The notes below the pieces were generated by a model that made no database searches, had not been told where the DNA came from, and saw nothing but the letters and a program-made list of their open reading frames with translations. From a virus (Duplodnaviria; Heunggongvirae; Uroviricota; Caudoviricetes), in IMG/VR virus record IMGVR_UViG_3300044613_002694, positions 1 to 30,375 of that record: a stretch of 30,375 nt of DNA. The stretch is one strand, 5' to 3'. Each line of letters opens with the position of its first letter. Position 1 is the first letter of the stretch. The position numbers and the translations under genes were made by a program. This document shows, in pieces, positions 7,552-29,872 of the stretch.

Positions 7552-7552
7552 G

Positions 7553-10337: not shown

Positions 10338-10338
10338 T

Positions 10339-12702: not shown

Positions 12703-12884
12703 GAATAATCAACATATTAGATTTTGAAAAGTTCACCGATTATTATTCGGAGAAATGGCAATTTAATACCTGGGATGAATGTTTACGAGATACCGGTATT
12801 AAACAAATTGCTTGGATTGATGATACCTTTCAGATAGAGATCACTGATGCAGAATACACCTGGTTTGTGTTGAGGTGGGCATAA
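12699..12884 (+). CDS. Array unit 51, class A
   Basis: ATGA overlap; ends WFVLRWA. Confidence 0.85.
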   Translation: MRIINILDFEKFTDYYSEKWQFNTWDECLRDTGIKQIAWIDDTFQIEITDAEYTWFVLRWA

Positions 12885-13090
12885 TGAAATCATACACTGA
12901 TACCGACATTTATGTTGTAGAAATAGAGGAAAATGATGAGCAGTATATAGAGGACTACCTTGATTGGTGTGAAGAGACATTTGAAGAAGATAAATGGATT
13001 ATTGCTGCTAGTGAATTGTTGTTCGAAAATACTAGGATTCTGTTTATGACAGAACAAGATCGTAATTGGTTTATGATGAGGTGGGGATGA
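12884..13090 (+). CDS. Array unit 52, class C
   Basis: TAATG overlap; ends WFMMRWG. Confidence 0.85.
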   Translation: MKSYTDTDIYVVEIEENDEQYIEDYLDWCEETFEEDKWIIAASELLFENTRILFMTEQDRNWFMMRWG

Positions 13091-13329
13091 AAAAAGTATT
13101 TTTCACGACTGAGGTTGCATTAAAGTTTTACACCGTACAAATCAAAGAAGATATTGGCTGGAATTCATTTATTGATGCCAAAGAGGAATGGTGCGATAAT
13201 CATAAAAGTAAGGTCAAATTCTTTTGGTTTTTTGAACGTGATGCACGATATGTTTACAGTTATTATTATTCAACCTGGTATTTTGAAAAAGAAGTTGACC
13301 GTAATTGGTTTATGATGAGGTGGGGATGA
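13087..13329 (+). CDS. Array unit 53, class C
   Basis: ATGA overlap; ends WFMMRWG. Confidence 0.85.
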   Translation: MKKVFFTTEVALKFYTVQIKEDIGWNSFIDAKEEWCDNHKSKVKFFWFFERDARYVYSYYYSTWYFEKEVDRNWFMMRWG

Positions 13330-13571
13330 TCGTTTGTGATGTAACTCTTAAAAACAATAGCCCATTCGATATTAGTGCATGGTGTGGAAAACAATTTGGT
13401 CCAGGTGGATACTCGTACACCCCATCAGACAACTATCGATGGACTATGTACATTTATACCGGTAGTGGTATCAAAAGACACCCAGCCCGAATTAGATTAT
13501 CATTTTTAAATGATCAAGATTATAACTGGTTTTGCTTGAGGTTCGAATGTCAAACAACGAAGATAAGTTAA
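13326..13571 (+). CDS. Array unit 54, class C, extended tail
   Basis: ATGA overlap; ends WFCLRFECQTTKIS. Confidence 0.85.
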   Translation: MIVCDVTLKNNSPFDISAWCGKQFGPGGYSYTPSDNYRWTMYIYTGSGIKRHPARIRLSFLNDQDYNWFCLRFECQTTKIS

Positions 13572-13762
13572 TACTTAAACCCTATCGTATCACTGCGTCT
13601 AATGTACCAAACTCAATAAGAAACAAATTAGGGTATGATACGGCAAGTTGGCGAGATGTAATTGAAGAATGCCATGGTATTATATACAGGACTACGTTTG
13701 ATTATGTTCTTGAATTTGAAAGTCTTGCCCAGTATAATTGGTTCTTAATAAGGTATAGTTAA
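13547..13762 (+). CDS. Array unit 55, class D-like
   Basis: GAGG SD in unit 54 tail; ends WFLIRYS. Confidence 0.8.
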   Translation: MSNNEDKLILKPYRITASNVPNSIRNKLGYDTASWRDVIEECHGIIYRTTFDYVLEFESLAQYNWFLIRYS

Positions 13763-14013
13763 TGATCTCTGCGGAAGGTAGATTAGAGGGTCTTAAAGCA
13801 CGTTATTATATTGCATCCCTACCCATGTCTAATGACTTGTTAGAACAATACAATTGGTGTGTTGGCCATAATAGTTGCGTTAAGTCATGGTGGTTTTTTA
13901 CAAGGCCAGCTCGATTTTTCTGGGACCCTACTAGATTTAATAATACGTTTTATTTTGAAAAAGAATCAGATCGCAATTGGTTTATAATGAGGTGGGGCTA
14001 TGACAGAAACTGA
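13762..14013 (+). CDS. Array unit 56, class C
   Basis: TAATG overlap; ends WFIMRWGYDRN. Confidence 0.85.
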   Translation: MISAEGRLEGLKARYYIASLPMSNDLLEQYNWCVGHNSCVKSWWFFTRPARFFWDPTRFNNTFYFEKESDRNWFIMRWGYDRN

Positions 14014-14257
14014 TGGGTTGTTTTATTACGCACCCTATAATCCATTTGGGGTACCCTACAAAACCACCAGAAAGCTTACCGACGTAGATGGTATATGGTA
14101 TACTGTAATTACTATGAAACATGAAGTGGACGATTGGATAGTTGAACTACCTATGGGTAGTTGGCGTTACTCTGCCAATAGAAGAATGGTAGACCTGTTC
14201 AGTGGGTTCGATTTACGTGAAGATGTCTACCAGTGGTTTTTATTGAGGTGGTCATGA
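14000..14257 (+). CDS. Array unit 57, related to unit 67
   Basis: GAGG SD in unit 56 tail; ends WFLLRWS. Confidence 0.85.
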   Translation: MTETDGLFYYAPYNPFGVPYKTTRKLTDVDGIWYTVITMKHEVDDWIVELPMGSWRYSANRRMVDLFSGFDLREDVYQWFLLRWS

Positions 14258-14460
14258 CGTTTGTAATAAGTGAGCACAATTTACCCATTAACTATAGACG
14301 GTTTAACGACCATTGTAACAAGAATGAAAACGGTACAAGATATTGGGTTAACGTTCGTCAAGAACTAGAAAAATTCAAAGCAACCTATAATAACATAACA
14401 AATCAACTTGTGTTTGAATCAGAAGCCCATTATAATTGGTTTGTATTGAGGTGGTCATGA
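14254..14460 (+). CDS. Array unit 58, class D
   Basis: ATGA overlap; ends WFVLRWS. Confidence 0.85.
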   Translation: MTFVISEHNLPINYRRFNDHCNKNENGTRYWVNVRQELEKFKATYNNITNQLVFESEAHYNWFVLRWS

Positions 14461-14684
14461 CATTTGAAGTTAAGTTTAAAAACATACCAGACATAACTAG
14501 AGAGAATTTTCTAACAGCATGTGGTAAATATGATGATTTTGTATCCAAGTATGATTTCGACACAAGACGAAATCATGAATTAGCGAAGTGTAAAGGTAAC
14601 CGGGTTAGTAATGGTCTAGGTGAACTGGTATACGAATTTGAAAGTGAAGCCCATTATAATTGGTTTGTAGTGAGGTGGTCATGA
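14457..14684 (+). CDS. Array unit 59, class D
   Basis: ATGA overlap; ends WFVVRWS. Confidence 0.85.
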   Translation: MTFEVKFKNIPDITRENFLTACGKYDDFVSKYDFDTRRNHELAKCKGNRVSNGLGELVYEFESEAHYNWFVVRWS

Positions 14685-14905
14685 CTTTTGAAATTTATTT
14701 TGAAAACATACCACAAATTGTTAAAACGAATTTCCTTATAGATTGTGATAATTATCACCAGAGTGGTGTAAATCACATTAACGAAACAATTAATAAAGAA
14801 TTAGCGAAGTTCAAGGGTAAACGGTTTAAGAATTGCCATGACAAGCTGGTATACGAATTTGAAAGTGAAGCCCATTATAATTGGTTTGTATTGAGGTATT
14901 CGTAA
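14681..14905 (+). CDS. Array unit 60, class D
   Basis: ATGA overlap; ends WFVLRYS. Confidence 0.85.
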   Translation: MTFEIYFENIPQIVKTNFLIDCDNYHQSGVNHINETINKELAKFKGKRFKNCHDKLVYEFESEAHYNWFVLRYS

Positions 14906-15129
14906 TGTATAAAGTAACCATCCCATTTGATCCAGAATGGCCTGATGAAAACTGTAAGGTACTATTGGCAAAAGAATGGTGTCACCAAACGTTTGGTAGC
15001 CGTCGATGCCCAATTACGTTAAAGTATCGTTGGATGACTAGATATACGTGGACCGGTAATAGATATATAATATATTTCTTTTTTGAAAAAGAAGAACATG
15101 CAACGTAGTTCAAATTACAATGGGCATGA
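14905..15129 (+). pseudogene. Array unit 61, class C, motif Trp codon replaced by TAG at 15106-15108
   Basis: ...EKEEHAT*FKLQWA* in frame; only the tail motif is lost. Confidence 0.75.
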
Positions 15130-15368
15130 AATTTAAGACATTTGATAGTAGGGCTGATCTCGATCACCCATATGGTGTATGTTTAGAAGTGTTTGGCGAT
15201 ACTTATGAGATAACCTTTACCAAAATAGAAATTGATAATTGGTGCCTAGAACAGTTTGGTCCCGATGGGGATAAATGGGCAGGGGTAATGTATGTTGGTG
15301 AAAACTACATAAGGGTATATTTCAAATCTATTGATGATCGTAATTGGTTTTTATTGAGATGGACATGA
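15126..15368 (+). CDS. Array unit 62, class C
   Basis: ATGA overlap with the relic stop of unit 61; ends WFLLRWT. Confidence 0.85.
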   Translation: MKFKTFDSRADLDHPYGVCLEVFGDTYEITFTKIEIDNWCLEQFGPDGDKWAGVMYVGENYIRVYFKSIDDRNWFLLRWT

Positions 15369-15577
15369 TATCAATTAATATAACACATAAACAATGGAAC
15401 AAATTAGCATTCTATCGTGATGAGTCCGATTCTAGTATTGTGAATATGCGTTCATCACGAGAAATGAAACAATATATCAAAGATACCTATCATGGAAATT
15501 ATGATCAACTAAAAGGTTTTGGAACCATCACATTTGAACATGAACATCTTCTAACTTGGTTTTTATTAAATGTATGA
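15365..15577 (+). CDS. Array unit 63, unclassified
   Basis: ATGA overlap; ends WFLLNV. Confidence 0.85.
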   Translation: MISINITHKQWNKLAFYRDESDSSIVNMRSSREMKQYIKDTYHGNYDQLKGFGTITFEHEHLLTWFLLNV

Positions 15578-15794
15578 AATACAAATTAACACACGATAAT
15601 TGGAAAGATCTTGATAGCAAGTTTGACGCAAAAGCTGGCAGGTCGCTCGTTAGAAGTGATCGGATATGTTATGGAAGGAATCGATTATGCAGGAGTATAA
15701 ATTAGATTATGAAGAAGATTACACGAATAGTCGAGACCATGGCACTGTTTCCGGTGAAGCACATCGTATAACTTGGTTTCTATTAAACATATGA
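15574..15794 (+). pseudogene. Array unit 64, frameshifted relative of unit 63
   Basis: MKYKLTHDNWKDL... in one frame and DMLWKES...GEAHRITWFLLNI in another; the shift lies after ~15657. Confidence 0.75.
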
Positions 15795-16039
15795 TATTAC
15801 ATTTGGTAGACGGCGGGTTTTTAACACAACCCTCATGGTGGCAGAATTTCATAAACGATATCGATGATAGATTTCCAGATGCATTTCACTACTACGAAGA
15901 TGAAGAACGTGAACAGTTAATTAAAGTTGAATTTGCAAAGGTTGGTGCTATTCTTATAGATGATGAGTATGACGGTATACTGGGAGTTGAATTCCATGAT
16001 GATGCAAAAGCTACTTGGTTTATAATGAGGTGGTCATAA
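15791..16039 (+). CDS. Array unit 65, class E
   Basis: ATGA overlap; PSWWQNF; ends WFIMRWS. Confidence 0.85.
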   Translation: MILHLVDGGFLTQPSWWQNFINDIDDRFPDAFHYYEDEEREQLIKVEFAKVGAILIDDEYDGILGVEFHDDAKATWFIMRWS

Positions 16040-16240
16040 TTGAATAATATATTAAAAATACCATTGTTTTCAAAAATGGAAGATAATATATCAGCATTTT
16101 ATGGGACCAATCGCTGGATGAGTTCTGCATTGCTGGAAACTGGGATAGTCTCATGTCGGTTTACATCTGAGTCGTGTGAAACCATAATTACATTTGAAAC
16201 CGACGCTCATAAGAATTGGTTTATAATAAGGTGGTCATGA
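16040..16240 (+). CDS. Array unit 66, class B, TTG start
   Basis: Abuts previous TAA; ends WFIIRWS. Confidence 0.8.
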   Translation: MNNILKIPLFSKMEDNISAFYGTNRWMSSALLETGIVSCRFTSESCETIITFETDAHKNWFIIRWS

Positions 16241-16461
16241 GTTTACCTAGAAATGGTGCATATGAGCTATTCATCAATAATGGTTTTGTATATTGTTTTG
16301 AATTATCATCAAACCCATTATTACTGGAGTCCGACGAATTACACAATTGGATTAGACAACAACCCAAAGAATTATGGCATGGTATGAATCCACCATATCA
16401 CAAAACGGCATATTATTTAAAACCTGAACTATATAATTGGTTCAAATTGAGGTGGTCATGA
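16237..16461 (+). CDS. Array unit 67, related to unit 57
   Basis: ATGA overlap; ends WFKLRWS. Confidence 0.85.
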   Translation: MSLPRNGAYELFINNGFVYCFELSSNPLLLESDELHNWIRQQPKELWHGMNPPYHKTAYYLKPELYNWFKLRWS

Positions 16462-16688
16462 AACTTGTAACAAGTAAAGAAATTGGTGTTCAACTACACA
16501 ACGTTCTTGCCGAACATAAGGCATTAATCGAGGAATACTCCGATGTTAATTTAAAAATTGACTTTCTAGAAAAACTTTGTAAATTCAGAGTTGTTGGTGA
16601 GTATAAGTCAATCACGCATTTTAAGGTAAAGTATGCAATTTTTGAACGAGAAGAAGATTTTACCTGGTTTATATTAAAATGGTCTTAA
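16458..16688 (+). CDS. Array unit 68, unclassified
   Basis: ATGA overlap; ends WFILKWS. Confidence 0.85.
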   Translation: MKLVTSKEIGVQLHNVLAEHKALIEEYSDVNLKIDFLEKLCKFRVVGEYKSITHFKVKYAIFEREEDFTWFILKWS

Positions 16689-16957
16689 CAAAAGCAAAAT
16701 CAAATCCATTATATCACTTCATTAATGTTATATGCACTGATGAAGAATTTATAGAATGCACTAGATGGTGTACTAAATCATTTGGGCATGCTGGTGATCG
16801 ATCATGGAACATGGAGTTATTGACAGACAATTTAGATGTTGCAAATAAATTGTTGTTGATTCAACGTAAACTGGTTAATCCAGTTGACCATAACTATCGG
16901 TTTAGATTTGCAAAAATTGAACATCGTGATTGGTTTGTGTTAAAATGGTCTTCATAG
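16679..16957 (+). CDS. Array unit 69, class C
   Basis: ATG from AAA-TGG; ends WFVLKWSS. Confidence 0.8.
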   Translation: MVLTKAKSNPLYHFINVICTDEEFIECTRWCTKSFGHAGDRSWNMELLTDNLDVANKLLLIQRKLVNPVDHNYRFRFAKIEHRDWFVLKWSS

Positions 16958-17163
16958 TAAAGTGGTGTGACATACCCGATAATGTCATAGAAAAATTGTG
17001 TTATGAGTGTGGCAGTGTTGACTTAAGTATTACTGCGGTAAAATATGTTGAGAATGTTGAAGCAGAATTCAATAAGTATGGCGGTTCAGGCAGGATATAC
17101 CGTACTATTTACTTTAACAATGAAGCGTGTTATACTTGGTTTTTATTAAGGTGGAGCCAATGA
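16945..17163 (+). CDS. Array unit 70, class D
   Basis: ATG from AAA-TGG; MVFIVKW aligns with MSFIVKW of unit 73; ends WFLLRWSQ. Confidence 0.85.
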   Translation: MVFIVKWCDIPDNVIEKLCYECGSVDLSITAVKYVENVEAEFNKYGGSGRIYRTIYFNNEACYTWFLLRWSQ

Positions 17164-17423
17164 GATTAGAAATTCCAGGTGAAAATTTTTATGAAACCCC
17201 ATTATGGTGGCAAAACTTTATCGACCATCATGAAAAAATCTTTGTGAAAACACATGGTGATTTAACTGTTAATTTTATGATATACACTTCAAATATTTTG
17301 CAATCTGAATACGGTGCTGTTAAAATTTATGAGCAAAATCCAAAAACTGGAAGAGACGAACTAACAGCATTAGAGTTTAATAAAGAAGAAACTCAAACTT
17401 GGTTTTTATTAAAATGGTCATAA
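17160..17423 (+). CDS. Array unit 71, class E (paralog of unit 38)
   Basis: ATGA overlap; ends WFLLKWS. Confidence 0.85.
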   Translation: MRLEIPGENFYETPLWWQNFIDHHEKIFVKTHGDLTVNFMIYTSNILQSEYGAVKIYEQNPKTGRDELTALEFNKEETQTWFLLKWS

Positions 17424-17821
17424 ACCAATTATCTAGAAGATTAAATGCAGTTGGGTTATCATTACAAGAGGATTTTGATTCATTATATAGGAATGGAAGT
17501 TGCTCTTGTCATTGGCACCCACCTTGTAGTTATTGTACACATCCAGGTAATCCATTAAATTTAGAAGAATCAGACGATGTATGGGAAACCGGTATGATAT
17601 GTGAAACTGTAGAAAGCAATCAGCATGATTTTAAATATATGGTTGGATATTTCTTACCATCAGAGATGAAAGAAATGATAGCGTGGTTGACAGAAACATT
17701 TGGTCCATATTCTCATGGTTGGAAGTTTATAGATAATACCAGATGGTATTGTGGCAATAGTCATTTTGTTTTTAAAACAGAAGCTGATCGTAATTGGTTT
17801 GTAATGAGGTGGAGTTCATGA
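17414..17821 (+). CDS. Array unit 72, Cys/His-rich N-terminal domain fused to a class C unit
   Basis: CSCHWHPPCSYC motif; ends WFVMRWSS. Confidence 0.8.
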   Translation: MVINQLSRRLNAVGLSLQEDFDSLYRNGSCSCHWHPPCSYCTHPGNPLNLEESDDVWETGMICETVESNQHDFKYMVGYFLPSEMKEMIAWLTETFGPYSHGWKFIDNTRWYCGNSHFVFKTEADRNWFVMRWSS

Positions 17822-18060
17822 GTTTTATTGTTAAATGGTCCGATATATCTGACCAAGTATGTGAAAATTTTACAAGAGCTTGTGGGTCGATGGATGATTC
17901 TATATCTGCTGACGAATATCTTGATAATATGGAAGATGCATTTGCCCAATTTAAAGCCTATGAATTATATGATGATGAATCACTCAGAGAAATAGAGTTT
18001 GATAGAGTCGTATTTGAAAATGAAGCTTATTACACTTGGTTTGTAATGAGGTTTTCATGA
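17818..18060 (+). CDS. Array unit 73, class D
   Basis: ATGA overlap; ends WFVMRFS. Confidence 0.85.
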   Translation: MSFIVKWSDISDQVCENFTRACGSMDDSISADEYLDNMEDAFAQFKAYELYDDESLREIEFDRVVFENEAYYTWFVMRFS

Positions 18061-18299
18061 CTGTTACTATATTGTGGGATGATATTCCTGATCCGGCACG
18101 AGAAAACTTTCTTGTAGAATGTGGTGCTCTTAATAGTGATTTGAATCTAGATGAATATCACAAGAATATGGCAAAGCTGTTTGCGGAATGCAAAGCTTAT
18201 GAATTTCATGAAAATCCAGCACATAAATACAACCGATTTGACAAAATAATATTTGAAAACGTAGCATGCTATAATTGGTTCTTAATGAGGTTTTTATGA
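18057..18299 (+). CDS. Array unit 74, class D
   Basis: ATGA overlap; ends WFLMRFL. Confidence 0.85.
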   Translation: MTVTILWDDIPDPARENFLVECGALNSDLNLDEYHKNMAKLFAECKAYEFHENPAHKYNRFDKIIFENVACYNWFLMRFL

Positions 18300-18499
18300 A
18301 AGTCAAGATTTATGAAATGGACCTATATGACAAAGCGTTATCAGTATATCCAGAATATGAATGGATGGCAATTGATGAGTTTATCAGGAAGTTAGGATTT
18401 AAAAGTTGCAATTTCATTAGTAAAATACCTGGTACAGAGTCATATTGGGAAATGGATGAAGTTGAATTTACTTGGTTTGCATTAAAGTATAGTGGGTAA
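18296..18499 (+). CDS. Array unit 75, class A
   Basis: ATGA overlap; ends WFALKYSG. Confidence 0.85.
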   Translation: MKVKIYEMDLYDKALSVYPEYEWMAIDEFIRKLGFKSCNFISKIPGTESYWEMDEVEFTWFALKYSG

Positions 18500-18501
18500 C
18501 T

Positions 18502-18690
18502 ATGAAATATTTTCATGGATGGTGGGTTTGTCACACCACTATAGATAATTTCGATGATTTCAACTGGTGTTGTGAACAATTCGGAAAACCAGAAATGAAC
18601 CGAAGATGGTTCTATAATCATGTTGAACGAAAATTTTATTTTGGACGAGAGGAAGATGCAATGTGGTATACTTTAAGGTGGTCAGCGTGA
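18502..18690 (+). CDS. Array unit 76, class C
   Basis: 2-nt gap; ends WYTLRWSA. Confidence 0.85.
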   Translation: MKYFHGWWVCHTTIDNFDDFNWCCEQFGKPEMNRRWFYNHVERKFYFGREEDAMWYTLRWSA

Positions 18691-18938
18691 TTCAATTACC
18701 AACACCTAGAGCATACAAAGCTATAAAATGGTTTGATGCCAATGCTAGTACTGTCATGTTATCGATGCAGAGGACTTCTGGAATTATAAGTTGGGGAGAA
18801 TACCTTGAAAAATATGATGAGAAATTTAGTAAAGAGTTTCATTGTAAGTTAGTCCGTAATGAAAAGTTACATTATATCGAATATTTAGAGTTCGAAGATG
18901 ACAAATATATGACTTGGTTTCTTTTGAATTGGTCATGA
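18687..18938 (+). CDS. Array unit 77, unclassified, GTG start
   Basis: GTGA overlap; ends WFLLNWS. Confidence 0.8.
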   Translation: MIQLPTPRAYKAIKWFDANASTVMLSMQRTSGIISWGEYLEKYDEKFSKEFHCKLVRNEKLHYIEYLEFEDDKYMTWFLLNWS

Positions 18939-19147
18939 TTAAGCATTCATTAAGCAGATCTGAAATAGCTAACATAGTTAATTATTCAATAGCACATGAA
19001 ATATCAATAGAATCATGTATTAAAGAATGGGGTGGTCAATACGATAACGCAACGCATATTAGAAATCCACATCACCCAGATTATTGGGGGATTGTCAAAT
19101 TTGAAACAGAAGCACTGCGAACTTGGTTTATATTAAGGTGGTCATGA
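18935..19147 (+). CDS. Array unit 78, unclassified
   Basis: ATGA overlap; ends WFILRWS. Confidence 0.85.
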   Translation: MIKHSLSRSEIANIVNYSIAHEISIESCIKEWGGQYDNATHIRNPHHPDYWGIVKFETEALRTWFILRWS

Positions 19148-19413
19148 GAATAGAAGATGAACGGTTACGTTACAAAGTCATCATTGATGATTTAGCGGAT
19201 CTCAGAAAACATGCAGGGGAATTACCACCAGAATACAGTGATACTGATTATGATGAAATAGTCAGGGTCATGTGTGACTGGTGTGAACATCAATTTGGTA
19301 AGAAGAAAGTAAAATGGAATTATTGGCTAGATAGCGCTTATGATCCGCCTGAAGATAATTTCAGTTTTCAAGAAGAACATCATAGAACACTTTTTATATT
19401 GAGATGGTCATGA
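19144..19413 (+). CDS. Array unit 79, class C
   Basis: ATGA overlap; ends LFILRWS. Confidence 0.85.
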   Translation: MRIEDERLRYKVIIDDLADLRKHAGELPPEYSDTDYDEIVRVMCDWCEHQFGKKKVKWNYWLDSAYDPPEDNFSFQEEHHRTLFILRWS

Positions 19414-19601
19414 AACAGTTTAAGATATCTAATTTTCCAAAGTTTGTTGAGTATGCTTACTCCAATCCAGAACTAAATAATTTGAATCAATGGGATGAGA
19501 TATTAGCAGCTGCCGGTTTCAAAACAGCAATATATAATGGCATTAATTCCTGGTGCATGGATGATGAAGAATATACTTGGTTTGTGTTGAGGTGGTCATG
19601 A
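19410..19601 (+). CDS. Array unit 80, class A
   Basis: ATGA overlap; ends WFVLRWS. Confidence 0.85.
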   Translation: MKQFKISNFPKFVEYAYSNPELNNLNQWDEILAAAGFKTAIYNGINSWCMDDEEYTWFVLRWS

Positions 19602-19804
19602 GAGTAATCACCTGCCGTGGCACAGACAATTACCCATACGGAGTTATCATCAGAGAACCATCATCTGATAGAAGCATGATTACACAATGGTGTGTAGATC
19701 AATTTGGAAGTCAATACGAGTCTGATCGATATAGATATGCTGGGAATTTAATATATTTTTCAAATCAAGATGACCGAAATTGGTTTATATTAAGGTGGTC
19801 ATGA
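19598..19804 (+). CDS. Array unit 81, class C
   Basis: ATGA overlap; ends WFILRWS. Confidence 0.85.
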   Translation: MRVITCRGTDNYPYGVIIREPSSDRSMITQWCVDQFGSQYESDRYRYAGNLIYFSNQDDRNWFILRWS

Positions 19805-20091
19805 ATATTTTTAAAAGAATTTACAATTATGTGTTAATTAAGTTTCGACCACCCTATGTTTTGTTATCACGCAAAGATACAGATCTCTTATGGAAGAAAT
19901 ATTGCAACTGCAAATTTAATGGGGGGAAGTATAAGTTTATCAGGGATTTTATCAAAGATGAATTTAAAGGCATTTCAGCTGTTGAGTGGACTACTACTGC
20001 TACTGATGAACCATTTGACCAATTAAAATTGACATTCGAAAAAGAACAATACAAAACATGGTTTTTACTAAATTGGGAATATCATGACTAA
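19801..20091 (+). CDS. Array unit 82, unclassified
   Basis: ATGA overlap; ends WFLLNWEYHD. Confidence 0.85.
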   Translation: MNIFKRIYNYVLIKFRPPYVLLSRKDTDLLWKKYCNCKFNGGKYKFIRDFIKDEFKGISAVEWTTTATDEPFDQLKLTFEKEQYKTWFLLNWEYHD

Positions 20092-20290
20092 AGAATTCAA
20101 AATTAGCATATACCATTTACCATCTAGCATGCGTGATAAGTTAGGTGATGAATTCCATACGTGGAATTCATCAAAATTGTATGAAGAATTGGCCACATTC
20201 AATGGCAGATTAGCATTAGTTAATGATTGGCGGTATCTTATATTTCAAAGTGAAGCACACTTTCAATGGTTTTCTATGAAATGGCTATAA
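20084..20290 (+). CDS. Array unit 83, class D-like
   Basis: 8-nt overlap; ends WFSMKWL. Confidence 0.85.
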   Translation: MTKEFKISIYHLPSSMRDKLGDEFHTWNSSKLYEELATFNGRLALVNDWRYLIFQSEAHFQWFSMKWL

Positions 20291-20493
20291 TTAAGCGATG
20301 CTATGGGTTCATACCTTATTCCAATGCCTATGATTATTATTTGGCAAATCTCAAAGACGGTGATAAGGTTAGAAGCATAATTGAAGAGGAGTATCATTGC
20401 AAATTTATATATCGTGATATGACAATTTCAGGTATATGTATGCAATTTGACAATGATGAAGATTACACTTGGTTTGTATTAAAATGGTCATGA
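20281..20493 (+). CDS. Array unit 84, unclassified
   Basis: ATG from AAA-TGG; ends WFVLKWS. Confidence 0.8.
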   Translation: MAIIKRCYGFIPYSNAYDYYLANLKDGDKVRSIIEEEYHCKFIYRDMTISGICMQFDNDEDYTWFVLKWS

Positions 20494-20747
20494 AACCTAA
20501 AAGAATAATTATGTATGGATGGCCGGATTGTCCTGTCTATTGGCAGGATTTTCTAATGTCACTACTTCCTATACTTGCTACATTACCTGATAGACCAGCA
20601 AGAATTGATTATGTCAATGACATACTAAAGAAATATCATGGCACATACACCGAGAATATATTTCATGAGGAGTCACTAGTGAATGTATTACTATTTGAAG
20701 ATGAATCATATTACAATTGGTTTGTAATACAATGGGGATCTAAATGA
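20490..20747 (+). CDS. Array unit 85, class E
   Basis: ATGA overlap; CPVYWQDF; ends WFVIQWGSK. Confidence 0.85.
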   Translation: MKPKRIIMYGWPDCPVYWQDFLMSLLPILATLPDRPARIDYVNDILKKYHGTYTENIFHEESLVNVLLFEDESYYNWFVIQWGSK

Positions 20748-20962
20748 CATCCAATGAAAAATATATTGTTAATAATATTCCACCTAATATAGAGAAGAAT
20801 ATAGATGAGATTACTGGATATAATGATCGATCTGTCCCATTCGAGAGTTGGGTAGAAGCAGAAAGACAATTATTAGCAGATTATGGATGTGAACTGAGTG
20901 ATGCAGGTTATGAATTCGAGAGTGAAGCACATTACACTTGGTTAATATTAAAATTTTCTTGA
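20744..20962 (+). CDS. Array unit 86 (last), class D-like
   Basis: ATGA overlap; ends WLILKFS; SD lost; stop lies inside the next -35. Confidence 0.85.
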   Translation: MTSNEKYIVNNIPPNIEKNIDEITGYNDRSVPFESWVEAERQLLADYGCELSDAGYEFESEAHYTWLILKFS

Positions 20963-20987
20963 CATTGAATTTGTTTTAAAGTATAAT
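20959..20987 (+). promoter_or_regulatory. Perfect-consensus sigma70 promoter TTGACA-N17-TATAAT
   Basis: TTGACA 20959-20964, TATAAT 20982-20987. Confidence 0.85.
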
Positions 20988-20993
20988 AACATC

Positions 20994-21480
20994 AAATAGG
21001 CAAAATTTAGACATAGTAAAGGCAATAAAACTTCAGATAATACTAGCACCGGTAAAATGGATTAAGGTGCCCCGAGATACGGAATGTGCTTCGCGTAGAG
21101 GGAAACAGCTGAGCTGATGCAGTGACTTTTTCGACTACTCACACCTAGTGTTGTGAATGATGATTGGATACGCCTTCAGTACAACCAATTTCGAAAATTT
21201 GAACAAATAAACAAAGGCTAAAAGAGTGGAGAGAAACCACACGGATATGAATGCGCTGATATGTATTCATACTCCCGCCGTCAGAATAAAGACAGCACTT
21301 CGAGGTACCGGCTGACCGCCTCTGTAATAGTGTAATATCAGATATGAAGTCAACTCAGTTGAAATATTTTTTTGCCCCCTTGATGGGGCAAAATATAATC
21401 GTAATCTAGTTGAATAGGTAGGATAGAAAAATGTGATGAGCGATAGCGAAGAACAGGAGAACGGAGTTCTCCTTTAGTAA
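20994..21480 (+). ncRNA. Candidate structured non-coding RNA (family not recognised)
   Basis: Strong promoter, no ORF of 60 aa or more until 21543, visibly higher GC, stems at 21046-21070, 21246-21271, 21302-21321, 21370-21393 and 21455-21473. Confidence 0.45.
21455..21475 (+). terminator. Hairpin AGGAGAAC-GGA-GTTCTCCT plus short T run, possible 3' end of the ncRNA
   Basis: 8-bp perfect stem; U-tract is weak. Confidence 0.4.
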
Positions 21481-21542: not shown

Positions 21543-22274
21543 ATGAATTTAAGAGAATTATTTGAGGCACGTAGAACATTGCCTAATGAAAATAGTAATG
21601 GTAAACCTATTGCCTATAATGATACTGCATTAGCTAATTTTTGGGCATGGTTCAAAGGTAGTAAAGTAGTAGATGAGCACAAAAGACCATTGGTTATGTA
21701 TCATGGAACCAATGCAGATTTTACAAGATTCAGTTATGAACATGCTAGTGTTGGTGCAGCTGAGTATGGTACTGGATTTTACTTCACTAATTACCCATCA
21801 ACTGCATCAGGTTATGCTAACCCAGATGCCGATGCACCTAATGTCATCCCAGTATATCTATCCATCAAAAAACCCATGCCAGCTAATTCTAAAAAATTAC
21901 TTACCGGCATGCAAGTAAAACAATTTATTCTTAACTCACCTAATATTGATGAATATTTAAGAGATAACTACGATGTTCCTTATTCAATGAATAAAAATGA
22001 AGCATTACGGGATGTTATTGATTTATATAGAAATAATGATTCACTATTACGTCAATTAAACACTATATCCTATGACCTGTATAAAAACCAAGATGAGGCA
22101 TTCCTCCAAAATAGCATAGCAATTACCAAATATGATGGATTGGTATTCAAACATCAATCAGGTGAATATTTCTACGTAGCATGGAATGCTAGCCAAATTG
22201 CATCAGCTGTTGGAGCCAGCGGTAGTTATTCAGGAACCGATCTGATTAACGAATACATCAAGGATGATAAATGA
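21543..22274 (+). CDS. ADP-ribosyltransferase-like protein (ART-PolyVal-like), putative internal head protein
   Basis: PLVMYHGT...GTGFYFT...ASGYA...VIPVYLSIKKP; N-terminus MNLRELFEA. Confidence 0.7.
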   Translation: MNLRELFEARRTLPNENSNGKPIAYNDTALANFWAWFKGSKVVDEHKRPLVMYHGTNADFTRFSYEHASVGAAEYGTGFYFTNYPSTASGYANPDADAPNVIPVYLSIKKPMPANSKKLLTGMQVKQFILNSPNIDEYLRDNYDVPYSMNKNEALRDVIDLYRNNDSLLRQLNTISYDLYKNQDEAFLQNSIAITKYDGLVFKHQSGEYFYVAWNASQIASAVGASGSYSGTDLINEYIKDDK

Positions 22275-23113
22275 AAGTAACAGAAATTATAACAGAAGCC
22301 CCAATCACAGATTATGAGCCATTAGGTGATTTTAAAAAACCTGGTTCTTTTAATGATCAACGCGATAAGAACTTAATACAGAATCAAAAGTATGAACAAA
22401 AGCTTTATAAATTCTTTGCAAAAACTGGTGCTGATTTCAGAATCTTCCCTGTTAATTACCCAGGATTACGTAAATTTCAAGAACGAGGTGAAGTAACACC
22501 ACAATTTATTCAACAAACATTTGCCAAACATCCAGAAATTGCTGAAAAAATATTATCTGACGTGGATAGTGATGCAATTACTATTGTATATGTATCAAAT
22601 ACCGGTACTAACAAAGTTGTAATGACACCCTGGATCATGGCACATCGATTTGGACATGCTATTGTTGCAAGTCGTGGTAATGCAGCACATGATGCTGCAT
22701 GGAAATATGTAGAAAATTATTTCTTTGGAACTATTCATGAAATTTTATCTACCATATATCGTGTGAACATCCAATCTGAAGGATATGATCGTCGGTATGA
22801 CCAATATTATACCGGATTATTTCATGCAATTGGTACACAACGTAGTAGCAGACGAGGATTATTACAAAGACCATATGAATTTTTATATGAATTATTTGCA
22901 CAATTTTTGAAAACTGGTAAAATAAAATTAAACATGTTGCCAAGCAATATACCCTATGGATCTTCAAACTGGGGACGTAAGAAATCGATGAATGCTAATC
23001 CCGATGTTCCAGAAGATGATGTTAATGATGGCATCCAAGGATTAATGAATACCATGCCATTCATGTTTGAAGATGTGTTAAGTGCATGCATGAATCATAT
23101 CTTTGTAATGTAG
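22271..23113 (+). CDS. Putative internal head protein with zincin-like HRxGH motif
   Basis: MKVTEIITEA N-terminus; TPWIMAHRFGHAI and downstream YEFLYELFAQ. Confidence 0.5.
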   Translation: MKVTEIITEAPITDYEPLGDFKKPGSFNDQRDKNLIQNQKYEQKLYKFFAKTGADFRIFPVNYPGLRKFQERGEVTPQFIQQTFAKHPEIAEKILSDVDSDAITIVYVSNTGTNKVVMTPWIMAHRFGHAIVASRGNAAHDAAWKYVENYFFGTIHEILSTIYRVNIQSEGYDRRYDQYYTGLFHAIGTQRSSRRGLLQRPYEFLYELFAQFLKTGKIKLNMLPSNIPYGSSNWGRKKSMNANPDVPEDDVNDGIQGLMNTMPFMFEDVLSACMNHIFVM

Positions 23114-23121
23114 GACAACTA

Positions 23122-23715
23122 ATGAAAGTAAGAGAAATTATACTAGAAGAAATAATTCAACCATCTACACAACCTGGAACTATGAGTTTATGGCATGGCG
23201 GCAACCTTGATGCAGTAGTGAAATATTCAACTGGCAGATCAGAATATGGTCCTGGATTATACCTGATTACTAACTATGAATCAGTTAAGAAATATGCTAA
23301 AGGTAGTAGAAAACTTTATATGATCACTATTGCCCAAGGTAGATCAGCAAACGAAGTTACTATTCCTTTACCAGATGTATTAAATTTTGTTAAATTATAT
23401 GTAGTAGCAGCTAAACGTAAAGATGTAACAGCAAGAATGACCAATCTTGCTAAAGATGGTAATAACATACTAGCAGAACATTTCATTAATGTTATTGTTA
23501 ATGAAGAGGCAATAAGACCAGGTAATAAAGCAGTTGAACGAGAATTCCTAGTTCAACATGGATGTGACTATCTAGTGGTTAATAATCCATTTGGCTGGGG
23601 TAATGCTACTATGATCGTATTATTCAATATGAATAAAATAGTTAATACTCAAGTGGTAAAACCAAAAGATACCATTGCACACTATGATTTACCAGCTGGA
23701 TTTGTACAAGGATAA
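23122..23715 (+). CDS. Second ADP-ribosyltransferase-like protein, putative internal head protein
   Basis: Start revised to MKVREIILEE (AGGA SD); LWHGG...YGPGLYLIT...KKYA. Confidence 0.55.
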   Translation: MKVREIILEEIIQPSTQPGTMSLWHGGNLDAVVKYSTGRSEYGPGLYLITNYESVKKYAKGSRKLYMITIAQGRSANEVTIPLPDVLNFVKLYVVAAKRKDVTARMTNLAKDGNNILAEHFINVIVNEEAIRPGNKAVEREFLVQHGCDYLVVNNPFGWGNATMIVLFNMNKIVNTQVVKPKDTIAHYDLPAGFVQG

Positions 23716-23719
23716 GTGA

Positions 23720-26700
23720 ATGAAGTTAAGACAATTATTTAATGAGGCATTGAATGACAACCAAAAGAAATATGTCGATGACCTTATAAAAAACATGGAA
23801 TATAACCCAGCACAATGGGATCATATATTTGGGAATGAATCACGTATATACCTACCTATGTCAGGTACTGCTGATCCAAGTCCAGAAGTTGTTAATACAT
23901 TAGCACTACTCGGCTATAAAATTCTAGATTATATTGCTGGTACTGCTATTAGTTCAACCCCAAGACAATATACTGCTAATGTTGTATTCGGACGTAATCC
24001 TGACATATATCAAGCATGGGAAAGTGATCCACATAGAACTGATCCAAAAGCATTGCCTAATAAATCTGTTATGGATGCATTGGCAACTATGCAATATGAT
24101 GTAATGGATTATGCTAAAGGAATCTTCGTCAAACCACCAAAACCTGAAAGTATTGGTAAAATCTTTGATGCATATAAAGTTGATAGAAGTATTGCTAATA
24201 AGTTTGAAGTAGAACATTCTGAAGATTTCAACACCAGTAATCAAGTAATTGTGATCACTCGTGACAAATACGAAGTAGCTGAAGTAAGTACCAATAAGAA
24301 ATGGAGTAGTTGTTTAAATCTTGGCGGTGGCTGGACTGGTCTTGATGAGTTGGGTAAAGCACAAGGTGAGAATGCCCAACCTGCGGTAAGGGATGTAGCA
24401 ATTGGATCTATCGCTGCCTATCTAGTTAAAAAAGATGATATGAATTTGGATGATCCTGTTGCACGTGTTTCAATGAAACCATTTATCAGTGATACCACCC
24501 ATCAGATTGCTTTAGGTGTGCATGATAAGGTATATGGTCGAGGTGCTGGCGTTCCAGCTGAATTCCGTGAAAAGGTTAAAGAATGGGCGGATGCTGTTAA
24601 TGCATCACAAGAATTAGATGGGTTATTTAGATTACATCCACATGCATATAATTACAATGAATTTTCATATCAAAATACAACCCAAACCCATGGTAATTAT
24701 GAAACCGATAAACAAACCTATAGTACATATCAAAATGCAGTAACCAAAGTTCCACCTGAGTTATTGACTATTGGTTATTTGAAAATGGTATTAGCAAATG
24801 ATCCAACCAACTATCCAACTGTGGTATCAAGAGCTCAAACTGCTAAAGCAGCAATGGAACTCACTAAAACTTTTATTAAGAATTCAGTAACGGGTGATAT
24901 CTCAACATTTCCACCGAGATTTATTGATGAGGCACCTAAAGAATTCTTTGAGCTGCTTACAGAAATATATCAAATAACACCTGGGGTTATTAATTTCCTT
25001 CCAGAGGGGTTATATGAAAATTATAGAACTGAGCTATTAAGATTTTATCAAATGATCGTGGACAAATATAATGATGGTTTAAGACATGTCATTAAAGGAT
25101 CTACTGATATTCAAGAATTGTATGATATTCTTAAATTAAAGGTTGGTACTAGTACATTGAATATAATTACTAGAAAGTTGATTAGAATGGCTGATCCAAG
25201 AGATGAATTAGTTGATAAGGATGCGTTCTTGACTATCTTATCAAATCCAAATTGTGATGCAGATACCATGAATAGAATTTTTGATTATGCTCAAGATGAA
25301 TACCAACATGGTAATTCAATGGATTTCTATAATAATCTTGATGATAAAATGCGAGTGGTTATTAAAAATCTTGCAACCGATATTAAGAATGCATCTAACT
25401 CAGACGAATTGGCTGATGTTGTTAATGCGGTTAATCGTTTGAATTCTATGTATACTATTGATCCAAAAATATATGGATTAATAGCTAACAATGAACATAT
25501 AAATGACCAGATTGTCATTAAACTAATGGCATCAGCTGATTCTGATGTAATATTTAATTTGATTAAAAATGACATCATACCAAACAGTATTTTGAGTGAT
25601 ATTGATTCATATACTAATTTAAGTGATGATAAGGTATGGGAAGCAGTACATAATTTATGGGTTAAACGTGTTAAAGAAGATCGAATAGATACTAGTGAGG
25701 TTGCTAAATTCTGTAAAGATCTATCGGTTATAAATTGGATGGTTAAATCTGATAAAATGAAAGGTAGTGATGCTGCGGGTGTCATTGTTAACATTTTAAA
25801 AGGTGAATATGCCGATTATGGTAAAAGTAGTGAAGATGAATGCTTATATACTATCTTAAAACATCACAAATTATCACCAAAGATTTTATTCTATATTAAA
25901 TCTAGGCTTCCTGAAAATTATTACATTGAAGATTCATACAAAATTGATAAACTAATTAGTAACATATTAACACATATCTGTGAAACTGGACCTGAGAGTG
26001 AACTACGAGATTTGGTGTATAACTATGATAGCGATGACTCCAATCTTACAAAGAAAATTATAGCAGCGGCTATCAAACATGATTCTATCAATGTGTTTCA
26101 TGATTTATATGTTAGACTTGATGATGTTTCCACTCTTGATAAAGTATTTCCAACAGTAATGGATAATCAAACAAATGCCAGATTCTCAGATCTTGAATAT
26201 ATTTACAGTAAAGGATCAGAAGAAGTAAAAGAATCAATTATTAAAAACTCGGTAATCAGAGTAAGGGATCTGCTTGATACTGACGGTGATGATGAACGCA
26301 TTAAAGAAATAAAACATAAAAGATTGTTGAATATGGCAAAACATAATAAAACACCTGTGATTGATACCCAATTATATAATGACATGGGTATATTACCACC
26401 TGATGTGTTTGTTGCATATGCTAAACGTATTAACTTGGCTGATGATATGATAGGTTTGACATATAGAACAACCGATAATCCAGAGCTGAGAAAAGCAATA
26501 AAAAAGAATTTTACTAGTACTGAACTACCATCTGAACTACCATCTGATGAACCCAACTCATCAACTGTTACTGATGTAATGAAGGCGTTACTTGCGAAAG
26601 GAAAAGAACAAGGTACTTTGACTAATGAAGAACTGGATGCCGCATTACAGAAAGTTGCACAGATCAGGGGTGAAGAATTTGATGATGAACAACGTGAAGA

Positions 26701-26743
26701 CATCATAACAATGCTAAATGATATGGGTATTCAAGTAGTTTGA
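23720..26743 (+). CDS. 1007-aa putative internal head protein with C-terminal sigma70 region 1.1 domain
   Basis: MKLRQLFNEA N-terminus; C-terminal KGKEQGTLTNEE...EQREDIITMLNDMGIQVV matches RpoD region 1.1. Confidence 0.75.
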   Translation: MKLRQLFNEALNDNQKKYVDDLIKNMEYNPAQWDHIFGNESRIYLPMSGTADPSPEVVNTLALLGYKILDYIAGTAISSTPRQYTANVVFGRNPDIYQAWESDPHRTDPKALPNKSVMDALATMQYDVMDYAKGIFVKPPKPESIGKIFDAYKVDRSIANKFEVEHSEDFNTSNQVIVITRDKYEVAEVSTNKKWSSCLNLGGGWTGLDELGKAQGENAQPAVRDVAIGSIAAYLVKKDDMNLDDPVARVSMKPFISDTTHQIALGVHDKVYGRGAGVPAEFREKVKEWADAVNASQELDGLFRLHPHAYNYNEFSYQNTTQTHGNYETDKQTYSTYQNAVTKVPPELLTIGYLKMVLANDPTNYPTVVSRAQTAKAAMELTKTFIKNSVTGDISTFPPRFIDEAPKEFFELLTEIYQITPGVINFLPEGLYENYRTELLRFYQMIVDKYNDGLRHVIKGSTDIQELYDILKLKVGTSTLNIITRKLIRMADPRDELVDKDAFLTILSNPNCDADTMNRIFDYAQDEYQHGNSMDFYNNLDDKMRVVIKNLATDIKNASNSDELADVVNAVNRLNSMYTIDPKIYGLIANNEHINDQIVIKLMASADSDVIFNLIKNDIIPNSILSDIDSYTNLSDDKVWEAVHNLWVKRVKEDRIDTSEVAKFCKDLSVINWMVKSDKMKGSDAAGVIVNILKGEYADYGKSSEDECLYTILKHHKLSPKILFYIKSRLPENYYIEDSYKIDKLISNILTHICETGPESELRDLVYNYDSDDSNLTKKIIAAAIKHDSINVFHDLYVRLDDVSTLDKVFPTVMDNQTNARFSDLEYIYSKGSEEVKESIIKNSVIRVRDLLDTDGDDERIKEIKHKRLLNMAKHNKTPVIDTQLYNDMGILPPDVFVAYAKRINLADDMIGLTYRTTDNPELRKAIKKNFTSTELPSELPSDEPNSSTVTDVMKALLAKGKEQGTLTNEELDAALQKVAQIRGEEFDDEQREDIITMLNDMGIQVV

Positions 26744-26768
26744 CAATAACGAAAGATCGTGATATAAT
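26740..26768 (+). promoter_or_regulatory. Perfect-consensus sigma70 promoter TTGACA-N17-TATAAT with TG extension
   Basis: TTGACA 26740-26745 (contains the stop TGA), TATAAT 26763-26768. Confidence 0.85.
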
Positions 26769-26794
26769 GTCCAAAAATAACAAAGGTGGATACA

Positions 26795-26977
26795 ATGGCA
26801 TATGATAAAAAAGCAATAGATGAGATGATTAATGAATCTCTTAACAATACAGATATGTTGAATTCTATTCCTCATTCTGATGTATCATCTGCACAAAAAC
26901 AAGAATCTTACAATAAAATTCTTAAATTGGCAGACAAGTTACATATTATAGCCAAGAAAGTTGAAAATAATGCGTGA
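26795..26977 (+). CDS. 60-aa hypothetical protein
   Basis: AAAGGTGGA SD; start revised to MAYDKKA. Confidence 0.7.
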   Translation: MAYDKKAIDEMINESLNNTDMLNSIPHSDVSSAQKQESYNKILKLADKLHIIAKKVENNA

Positions 26978-27287
26978 TTTAATTAATTTAATAGAGCAGT
27001 TGGATGAAATCACCGTATCTTCAACTGATGAATTTTTAGATAAAATTGTGAATCCTGATCTTGCACATGTGATATATGGTGTAATCAGTGATTACACCAT
27101 TATTACGGATGATTTCAAAAAACCCGCAATCCTTACATTTGACTCTAATCTTCTTCAAGAAATTTCTGAAATAGTGGTTGAAATTCATGATGAGGTGATA
27201 GAATCATATGGGAATGAAAGGCAGATAGTTAGGTTAACTACGTTTTTATATAATTATTTTATTAATGGTGAGACTTACAATGAATAA
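26970..27287 (+). CDS. Hypothetical protein with MRDLINLIE N-terminus
   Basis: ORF track; overlaps previous stop; N-terminus resembles the L/I-x-E motif of the 21.5-23.7 kb genes. Confidence 0.7.
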   Translation: MRDLINLIEQLDEITVSSTDEFLDKIVNPDLAHVIYGVISDYTIITDDFKKPAILTFDSNLLQEISEIVVEIHDEVIESYGNERQIVRLTTFLYNYFINGETYNE

Positions 27288-28858: not shown

Positions 28859-29872
28859 ATGGCATTAAATGCTAGTGGAACAATAAGTATGGGTGGTCCA
28901 ACCGTAGGACAATCTATTGAATTGGAATTGGGTATGAGTGGTACTGCACAAGCCAGTTTGAATGATAGTAATTTTAGAGGTCTGGCAGGAATTGCGTCTG
29001 GGCAAATTAGTTTAAGTAATTTTTATGGTAAATCTTCTGGCCCAGCTACTGGAATATTTTATGGTGGGACTTCGGGTGTTTATATAAATACTGTTACTCG
29101 CATAAATGCGTGTGGATCATTAATCGGTTCAGAAAGTACTGTTGGTACTGCACGAGCTGGCTTAACTGGAGCATCGGTTGGGGCAAACGGGTTATTTTAT
29201 GGTGGGTTTTTGGGTGCTATTTTTAAAAACACTGTTACTCGTATAAATGCGTGTGGATCATTAGTTGGGGAAACAACAAATCCCACTGCCATATATATTG
29301 CTTATTCAGGTGGAGCAAATGTAGGTTCAAATGGATTATTTTATGGTGGAAATAATGCTAATAATCGCAATGCAGTCACTCGTATAAATGCATGTGGGTC
29401 TTGGGTCGGTACACAGGTGTTTCTTGGTACAGCAAGGACGCAGTTAGCTGGGGCCTTGGTCGGGTCAAATGGATTATTTTATGGTGGAAATCTAGTAACT
29501 CGTATAAATTCTTGTGCAGCAATGGTTGGTTCAGAAACTACTGTTGGGACAACATACAGAAGGAGACTAGGTGGTGCACCAGTCGGGTCAAATGGGTTAT
29601 TCTATGCTGGTTGTGACGGATGTAGTAATCTTGGAATAGTAACTCGTATAAATGAGTGTGGAGTATTAGTTGGTTCAGAACCAAGTGTTGGTACACCAAG
29701 AAGATTTATATCTGGCGCGAGGGTGGGGTCAAATGGTATGTTTTATGGGGGGGTAAATGATACTACTGGTACTAGCAACACTGTTACTCGTATAAATGCA
29801 TGTGGATCATTAGTTGGTTCAGAAACATCGGTTGGTACTATAAGAATAAGTTCTGGTGGTGCATCTATTTAA
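28859..29872 (+). CDS. Putative virion accessory/fibre protein with six kelch-like repeats
   Basis: N-terminal MALNASGTIS...ISLSNFYGKS module; six GxFYGG...VTRINxCG...VG repeats. Confidence 0.7.
   Translation: MALNASGTISMGGPTVGQSIELELGMSGTAQASLNDSNFRGLAGIASGQISLSNFYGKSSGPATGIFYGGTSGVYINTVTRINACGSLIGSESTVGTARAGLTGASVGANGLFYGGFLGAIFKNTVTRINACGSLVGETTNPTAIYIAYSGGANVGSNGLFYGGNNANNRNAVTRINACGSWVGTQVFLGTARTQLAGALVGSNGLFYGGNLVTRINSCAAMVGSETTVGTTYRRRLGGAPVGSNGLFYAGCDGCSNLGIVTRINECGVLVGSEPSVGTPRRFISGARVGSNGMFYGGVNDTTGTSNTVTRINACGSLVGSETSVGTIRISSGGASI

Follow-up and report, generated by a model that had tools for sequence, protein, structure and literature searches.

Introduction

What would a phage protein that is not a sigma factor do with a piece of one? 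This question is raised by P0001, a protein of 1007 amino acids (computed mass 114 kDa, computed pI 5.0) that is translated from the open reading frame (ORF) 23720-26743 on the plus strand of a 30,375-nucleotide stretch of DNA of a Caudoviricetes virus (IMG/VR record IMGVR_UViG_3300044613_002694). This stretch, designated the window in the following, is the initial 30-kb part of a viral contig of 94 kb, which has a G+C content of 34% and, according to CheckV, a completeness of about 40%. An earlier note, made without database searches, had claimed that the protein ends in a domain related to region 1.1 of sigma70 and had seen in it a candidate effector of host RNA polymerase that may be injected. 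Here we describe the evidence for the identity of this domain, for its maintenance in a family of phage proteins and for the packaging of members of that family in virions, and we weigh a role of P0001 at the host RNA polymerase against other explanations.

A sigma70 region 1.1 domain at the C-terminus of P0001

The C-terminal end of P0001 reads ...MKALLAKGKEQGTLTNEELDAALQKVAQIRGEEFDDEQREDIITMLNDMGIQVV. It is preceded by an exact 12-nucleotide tandem duplication, GAACTACCATCT twice at 26522-26545, which encodes ELPSELPS (residues 935-942); the tail and the duplication were found as the earlier note had quoted them. Because P0003, which is 88% identical to P0001, has a single copy of GAACTACCATCT only, this stretch is regarded as a slippage-prone linker.

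The Pfam profile Sigma70_r1_1 (PF03979; gathering cut-off 22.5 bits) matches the whole of P0001 with 47 bits (E 2.5e-12), residues 954-1007 being aligned to profile positions 7-54 of 81, and it matches the last 78 amino acids alone with 51.2 bits (E 1.3e-13). In a six-frame search of the 94-kb contig, a single Sigma70_r1_1 place was found (26579-26752; 52.9 bits, E 2.6e-15). The N-termini of RpoD and SigA proteins accounted for 19 of the 20 entries among the matches listed in a sequence search of the PDB, where residues 9-55 of E. coli sigma70 were aligned. In the reverse direction, a profile of eight phage C-terminal domains (A5) was compared with the whole E. coli chromosome and recovered only the N-terminus of RpoD (66 bits, E 1.5e-17; next match 14 bits, E 0.22). 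The same profile matches 399 of 401 sampled Pseudomonadota genomes, and the RpoD proteins with the best matches in the 401 genomes have a length of 610-640 amino acids, which may serve as a rough guide. The hidden Markov model check, the PDB search and the reverse profile agree, and the assignment made in the earlier note has held: by these profile matches, the C-terminal domain of P0001 is truly homologous to sigma70 region 1.1.

The alignment with bacterial RpoD leads to the same picture. The domain is 46-57% identical to its bacterial counterparts, including the signature blocks GKEQG and NDMGIQV, and the hallmark residues L..L..KGKE.G..T..EL ... ED I I.M.NDMGIQV are kept. Aligned with RpoD of E. 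coli, Dasania and Oceanicoccus, both region 1.1 blocks, L..L...GKE.G.LT..E and EDII.MINDMGI.V, are present, and P0001 ends where the acidic linker of RpoD starts. The domain has a net charge of -7 over 63 residues. In the clade of P0001 it contains an insertion of seven residues, which we take to be located in the loop between the second and the third (last) helix. As to its fold, the one indication is a pLDDT (predicted local distance difference test) of 74 for the domain in a co-folding complex run.

Further sigma factor regions, which had not been visible in the earlier reading either, were not detected: there was no further Pfam match in P0001 at E <= 1, Sigma70_r1_2, r2, r3 and r4 were not found, and residues 340-950 gave no sequence match in the PDB. 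Since regions 1.2, 2, 3 and 4 were not found, P0001 is not a sigma factor.

Conservation of the fusion in a phage protein family

Ten further full-length relatives, 88% to about 31% identical to P0001, were found on independent metagenome contigs. The region 1.1 C-terminus is present in 8 of the 11 full-length proteins, P0001 included, so that what had been noticed as a region 1.1 domain in one phage protein has turned out to be a fusion that is kept under divergence within a phage family. The three proteins without the domain (P0009-P0011) either have a different C-terminus (two proteins) or are truncated (one protein). Identity between P0001 and the distant relatives amounts to about 52% in the first 350 residues, about 20% in the middle and 30-57% in the region 1.1 domain where this is kept. 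A scan of IMG/VR for relatives of P0001 gave one distant locus only.

Compared with the closest relative for which DNA is available, the ratio of non-synonymous to synonymous substitution rates (dN/dS) is 0.11 for the N-terminal domain and 0.21 for the middle, and by this measure the whole gene is under purifying selection. In the comparison with the contig L049, codons 751-1007 and at least 300 nucleotides downstream are 98-100% identical (approximately 25970-27040), the rest of the gene 80-92%; judged by this pattern, the final quarter of the gene and the sequence that follows it form a recombination mosaic with L049. Because the last quarter is 98-100% identical to the sole relative with DNA, dN/dS of the C-terminal domain is unmeasurable.

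An additional conserved block, DEWP...YGE...ISRGxNGKY, is located just before the region 1.1 domain in P0005-P0009 and P0012 (alignment A1, columns approximately 1100-1170). It is deleted in the clade of P0001 and may represent a further small domain.

No precedent for a fusion with sigma region 1.1 was found in GenBank phages or in the searchable literature. All ten GenBank phage records with a region 1.1 match represent host rpoD, located on the flanks of prophages or present as contamination. Stand-alone short proteins consisting of region 1.1 were considered and rejected, as they proved to be bacterial rpoD genes, frameshifted or incomplete, within dnaG-rpoD operons. A search for published work on region 1.1 in phage or virion proteins turned up studies on Gp2, Ocr and TraR only, and in the survey of polyvalent proteins the word sigma occurs nowhere in the text (Iyer et al. 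2017; PMC5512222).

The N-terminal domain family and its presence in virions

A search of a library clustered at 50% identity gave 1333 representatives (E <= 1e-3) of the family that is defined by the conserved core of the N-terminal domain. Its motif is ISRHPYDIAGMSTxRGWTSCMNL, which in P0001 reads ITRDKYEVAEVSTNKKWSSCLNL, and members occur in the jumbo phages RsoM2USA, Atu_ph07, Lu11 and Yoloswag and in the Dickeya JA phages. The domain is usually N-terminal and followed by variable arms, which contain DUF4116 repeats in 23 of 86 members, HEAT repeats in some and an ART-PolyVal domain in one. The middle of P0001 is likewise predicted to consist of helical repeats, by comparison with those relatives that have DUF4116 or HEAT repeats at this place.

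A structure model of the N-terminal domain reached a pLDDT of 92.8 with an alignment of 136 sequences and of 64 with 11 sequences. Foldseek searches of the PDB with this model gave nothing below E 0.03, and the top 50 matches of an exhaustive structural aligner were all GNAT enzymes or other proteins with a GNAT-type domain, acetyltransferases with few exceptions, with Z scores of 4-6, below the noise level of the tool. A Pfam match for the domain was found neither in P0001 (E <= 1) nor in 86 family members (E <= 0.001). In libraries of predicted structures (AFDB, BFVD, Atlas), uncharacterised viral proteins were retrieved; PcfJ-like (PF14284) proteins were remote but recurrent matches.

The family begins with a short leader with the consensus M-K/R-x-x-E/Q-L/I/F-x-x-E-A-L. 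The capsid-targeting-like N-terminus that the earlier note had seen in P0001 is in fact a family-wide trait, as 109 of 157 members have, close to the N-terminus, [LIVMF]-x-E with a small residue behind it, the glutamate being mostly at position 8-10; among 300 control ORFs of the contig, 15 have this motif. The leader of P0001 itself, MKLRQLFNE-A, has F-N-E at positions 7-9 and is a loose fit to L/I-x-E; most of its relatives have L-F-E-A at the end of the leader. In phage T4, the first 10 residues of IPIII, an internal protein, suffice for loading proteins into the prohead, and the prohead protease cuts after glutamate (PMC9026906). A similar short propeptide is present in T4 Alt, a packaged and ejected ADP-ribosyltransferase (ART) that modifies RNA polymerase (PMC9026906; PMC5512222). 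With [LIVMF]-x-E and its glutamate at position 8-10, the family leader matches the 10-residue T4 capsid targeting sequence (PMC9026906).

Two members of the family have been detected in virions. The protein gp394 of Atu_ph07 was identified in purified virions with 18 unique peptides and a coverage of 41% (PMC6102473, Table S5), and ORF132 of RsoM2USA, with a mass of 76.64 kDa, was among the ten most abundant virion bands (PMC8504454). The former corresponds to P0014 (coding sequence matched by tblastn; 1455 bp, 55.10 kDa) and the latter to P0013 (computed mass of the match 76.62 kDa). Since both lack the sigma domain, these data support packaging of the family and not that of P0001 itself, whose packaging and injection are presumed from its relatives.

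Proposed role of P0001

In the free sigma70 holoenzyme, the downstream-DNA channel of RNA polymerase is filled by region 1.1, which through its negative charge takes the place of DNA and has to leave the channel for the open complex to form. The isolated region acts in trans on polymerase that lacks it, namely the R1.1-deleted sigma70 holoenzyme and the sigma38 holoenzyme (James et al. 2012; PMC3778932). Because of this activity in trans, a captured copy on a virion protein is most simply understood as an address label for RNA polymerase, and since the channel of the sigma70 holoenzyme is filled by its own region 1.1, the copy would be expected mainly on core enzyme and alternative holoenzymes.

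Our preferred reading, in which we place a little less than even confidence, is that P0001 may be a packaged and probably injected protein that docks on the host RNA polymerase via a borrowed region 1.1 module. It would be a capsid-targeted virion protein of a T4-like or Rak2-like freshwater jumbo phage, with a short leader that can be cleaved off, a phage-specific domain at the N-terminus that it has in common with proven virion proteins, a helical arm that evolves rapidly and, at the C-terminus, the compact core of sigma70 region 1.1, and would probably be delivered into the cell together with the phage DNA. There, the borrowed module would most likely bring P0001 to the host RNA polymerase. 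A free copy of region 1.1 would enter empty channels most easily, i.e. those of core enzyme or of holoenzymes with alternative sigma factors devoid of region 1.1, and the sigma70 holoenzyme that reads the consensus early promoters of the phage would be spared. An extension of this reading, according to which region 1.1 delivered by the virion on a long arm would plug the channels of core and alternative-sigma enzymes, leave the sigma70 holoenzyme untouched and funnel transcription to the consensus early promoters of the phage, is in our estimate distinctly unlikely. If true, it would constitute a new principle of host takeover, the selective blocking of channels with a stolen host part, and would also be the first example in nature of region 1.1 working in trans.

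Several points weigh against docking of an injected P0001 on RNA polymerase. Of the 81 profile positions, the domain covers 7-54 only, so that the acidic linker of region 1.1 is missing, and because its tether is at the N-terminus and not at the C-terminus, it would not sit in the channel with the geometry of sigma70. What keeps region 1.1 in the channel is largely its tether together with charge, so that binding of a copy in trans may be weak; a molar excess was required for the published trans effect (PMC3778932). Binding of the P0001 domain to RNA polymerase is presumed from homology. The domain also appears to be dispensable for the core role of the family, since P0009-P0011 lack it. A search of the 94-kb fragment, about 40% of the genome, did not find the prohead protease PF03420; as none of 14 control genomes matched it either, this negative is uninformative. 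The TAAATA late-promoter motif was located upstream of 4 of 40 ORFs versus 1.15 expected, a weak enrichment. Co-folding of the domain with three fragments of E. coli RNA polymerase, namely the beta lobe (residues 140-460), the clamp of beta' (1-345) and its jaw region (1131-1375), gave no verdict (score 0.00, without controls) and counts neither for nor against binding.

Gene cluster, promoters and host

The P0001 gene closes a run of four consecutive genes whose products all have this kind of leader (Table 1). The cluster is conserved in the contigs of the two nearest relatives, P0003 and P0004, and in distant relatives the 280-amino-acid gene alone of the cluster still adjoins the gene of the region 1.1 protein. 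The 280-amino-acid protein (22271-23113) is 84% identical to its counterpart at 11276-12118 of contig L006, where the region 1.1 proteins are only about 33% identical; P0001 thus evolves unusually fast. The 280-amino-acid protein, which has a capsid-targeting-like leader, contains the stretch WIMAHRFGHAIV. The 197-amino-acid protein, which was also called with 197 amino acids in L049, shows weak similarity to the ART encoded by the first gene; in P0001 itself no ART match was found with Pfam. The products of 21543-22274 and 23122-23715 are candidates for packaged ADP-ribosyltransferases like T4 Alt, and an ART-PolyVal neighbour with the same leader provides a parallel to that system (PMC9026906; PMC5512222).

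Table 1 Location of the P0001 gene, its parts and the adjacent features in the window
Feature	Coordinates	Strand	Basis
ART-PolyVal ADP-ribosyltransferase, leader MNLRELFE-A, cluster gene 1	21543..22274	+	PF18760, E 5.7e-23, 82.7 bits
280-amino-acid protein, leader MKVTEIITE-A, cluster gene 2	22271..23113	+	No family match; synteny
197-amino-acid protein, leader MKVREIILE-E, cluster gene 3	23122..23715	+	PF18760, E 0.005, below cut-off
P0001 gene	23720..26743	+	ORF list, translation, full-length homologues P0003-P0012
Capsid-targeting-like leader, codons 1-9 MKLRQLFNE (F-x-E end), then Ala	23720..23746	+	Sequence
Conserved core of N-terminal domain, residues ~105-320	24032..24679	+	Family search, structure model
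Fast-evolving middle, residues ~346-934, predicted helical	24755..26521	+	Identity comparison
Linker, residues 935-953, with GAACTACCATCT twice	26522..26578	+	Sequence; comparison with P0003
Sigma70 region 1.1 domain, residues 954-1007	26579..26740	+	PF03979 match, RpoD alignment
Stop codon of P0001	26741-26743	+	
Perfect extended sigma70 promoter, TTGACA-17-TATAAT, TG before -10	26740..26768	+	Promoter scan

The 94-kb contig contains 18 perfect (12/12) promoters of the type TTGACA-N16-18-TATAAT, 14 of them on the plus strand; examples in the window are those at 376, 1302, 4936, 11577, 20959 and 26740. When up to one mismatch is allowed, 24 sites are counted on one strand and 8 on the other, versus about 4 per strand in shuffled sequences, and by these counts the set of consensus host-type promoters is unusually pure. 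With these promoters, the phage relies for many of its genes on the sigma70 holoenzyme of the host. The one at 26740-26768 overlaps the stop codon of P0001 and starts the next early-type unit; according to the promoter scan of the contig, none of the 18 serves the cluster 21543-26743. The position of the cluster, behind a small-RNA gene and a hairpin and without a consensus promoter, would fit non-early expression.

The small-RNA gene is a match to the Polynucleobacter-1 RNA of Rfam (RF01718) at 21041-21200 (+), behind the perfect sigma70 promoter at 20959-20987. RF01718 also occurs at L006 7205-7363, L008 7208-7366 and L049 326-482; the scores of the matches, that in the window included, are 57-70 bits versus a cut-off of 37, and its position upstream of the gene or cluster of the region 1.1 protein is kept in these three related phage contigs. 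It is followed by about 250 nucleotides of further conserved non-coding sequence ending in a hairpin at 21456-21472, the pairing of which is preserved in L006 by a compensatory change. The Polynucleobacter-1 RNA motif may be phage-borne. Directly upstream lies a long array of translationally coupled genes of 60-90 codons (approximately 3400-20960, +), whose position is conserved in L006 and L008 (1-7000 in both); in L008, a gene of the IS605 OrfB/TnpB type (PF01385, PF07282) is inserted among small genes at 16813-17889 (-). Downstream of P0001, a glycine-rich protein of 337 amino acids is encoded at 28859-29872 (+). Upstream of it, at 28830, an exact copy of the T4 late-promoter sequence TATAAATA is present, and in relatives the corresponding place is occupied by a gene of the GP38 (PF05268) adhesin family.

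With respect to the host, almost all named best matches of the region 1.1 domain are gammaproteobacterial RpoD proteins, such as those of Oceanicoccus and Dasania (50-52% identity); fragment matches include Aeromonas, Pseudomonadales, Oceanospirillaceae and Sedimenticola, and Firmicute SigA proteins score much lower in the PDB search. The consensus promoters and the Polynucleobacter-1 RNA also point to a host from the Pseudomonadota (in the sense of GTDB). Of the proteobacterial host suggested in the earlier note, the proteobacterial affinity of the nearest region 1.1 sequences stands; the host itself is plausible only, as the domain comprises 50 residues and the matched taxa are mostly without names.

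Alternative explanations

The identity of the domain and its conservation would hold equally if P0001 acted on the host RNA polymerase solely within infected cells, where it would be a factor for host shutoff or sigma competition of the middle or late phase that is never injected, the virion association of its relatives then reflecting a different role of the N-terminal domain. In line with this, the gene of the distant relatives is located in an early-looking region after the array of small genes and the small-RNA gene, away from structural genes, and neither a prohead protease nor head genes were found nearby. Yet the N-terminal leader is the hallmark of the family, two homologues were detected in virions by mass spectrometry, and the cluster has no consensus early promoter although the contig has 18; purely intracellular action is in our view rather unlikely. 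Equally doubtful is a structural or internal virion protein in which the acidic three-helix module is reused apart from RNA polymerase, e.g. for assembly of the head core, for contact with DNA or internal proteins or for oligomerisation. The abundance of the family in virions, the predominance of members with repeat arms (DUF4116, HEAT) instead of the sigma domain, the existence of relatives without region 1.1 and the fact that RNA polymerase binding by the domain is only predicted all agree with such a role, but an identity of 46-57% to bacterial RpoD with GKEQG and NDMGIQV would be hard to explain if the partner surface were irrelevant, and the neighbouring ADP-ribosyltransferases point to modification of the host.

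Two further explanations appear less probable still. As the domain is acidic, it might serve as a bait for a factor of the host or of a rival phage that recognises region 1.1, or as an acidic mimic obstructing, in the manner of T7 Ocr, a defence enzyme that targets DNA. To our knowledge, no cellular factor targets free region 1.1. Injected phage proteins are often anti-defence factors (PMC5512222), and Ocr binds both restriction enzymes and RNA polymerase (PMC7064336); against this stand the small size of the domain, which is not DNA-shaped like Ocr or ArdA, and the neighbourhood, in which no defence-related genes were seen, and we hold a decoy or DNA mimic directed at a target other than polymerase to be improbable. 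Bacterial rpoD fragments do contaminate phage records and sets of short proteins, and the fusion could in principle result from a chimeric assembly of phage DNA and such a fragment. The same architecture, however, recurs on independent contigs from several samples at 31-88% identity, the domain is C-terminal and not N-terminal, neither dnaG nor other sigma regions are located nearby, and the composition of the region and the phage promoter downstream are continuous with the rest. An assembly artefact was rejected because independent homologues carry the same fusion, and its probability is negligible.

Comparison with known systems

Docking of an injected virion protein on the host RNA polymerase through region 1.1, our preferred reading, has to be seen against the known ways in which phages retarget this enzyme, namely by small proteins of their own (Gp2, AsiA, Ocr) or by packaged enzymes (T4 Alt). 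A virion-family protein with a piece of a host sigma factor would represent a third way, in which mimicry is achieved by capture. The P0001 domain would be a natural reagent for the role of region 1.1 separated from sigma, and with its 60 residues it makes targeting of RNA polymerase directly testable. Moreover, the N-terminal domain family, with more than 1300 representatives at 50% identity, is given a name and a likely location as capsid cargo, and the leader together with the two proteomic records would make candidates for injected proteins in jumbo phages predictable from sequence.

The closest relative of the domain is region 1.1 of RpoD and SigA itself. The P0001 copy is 46-55% identical to residues of about 9-56 of gammaproteobacterial RpoD and has a similar negative charge, but it is located at the C-terminus of a phage protein that is not a sigma factor and lacks regions 1.2-4. 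With T4 Alt and the internal proteins of T4, P0001 shares the short [L/I/F]-x-E leader and the presence of family members in virions, and with Alt in particular it shares, through its ADP-ribosyltransferase neighbours with the same leader, the association with this enzyme activity and the presumed target, the host RNA polymerase. It differs from them in lacking an ART domain and any sequence similarity, and for targeting it would use a captured part of sigma and not the active site of an enzyme.

T7 Gp2 binds to the beta' jaw and misuses region 1.1 of sigma, and T7 Ocr is a DNA mimic. The site proposed for P0001, the downstream-DNA channel, and the logic of an acidic placeholder are shared with these two proteins (PMC3778932; PMC7064336). 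Neither of them is homologous to P0001, and both are small inventions of the phage that are made after infection, whereas P0001 has a host-derived domain on a 114-kDa protein of a virion family. Polyvalent proteins, finally, combine several domains, ART-PolyVal among them, and enter the cell along with the invading DNA (Iyer et al. 2017); in the N-terminal domain family, a fusion to ART-PolyVal occurs in at least one member. P0001 would resemble them in these respects and differs in that it has no recognised enzymatic polyvalent domain.

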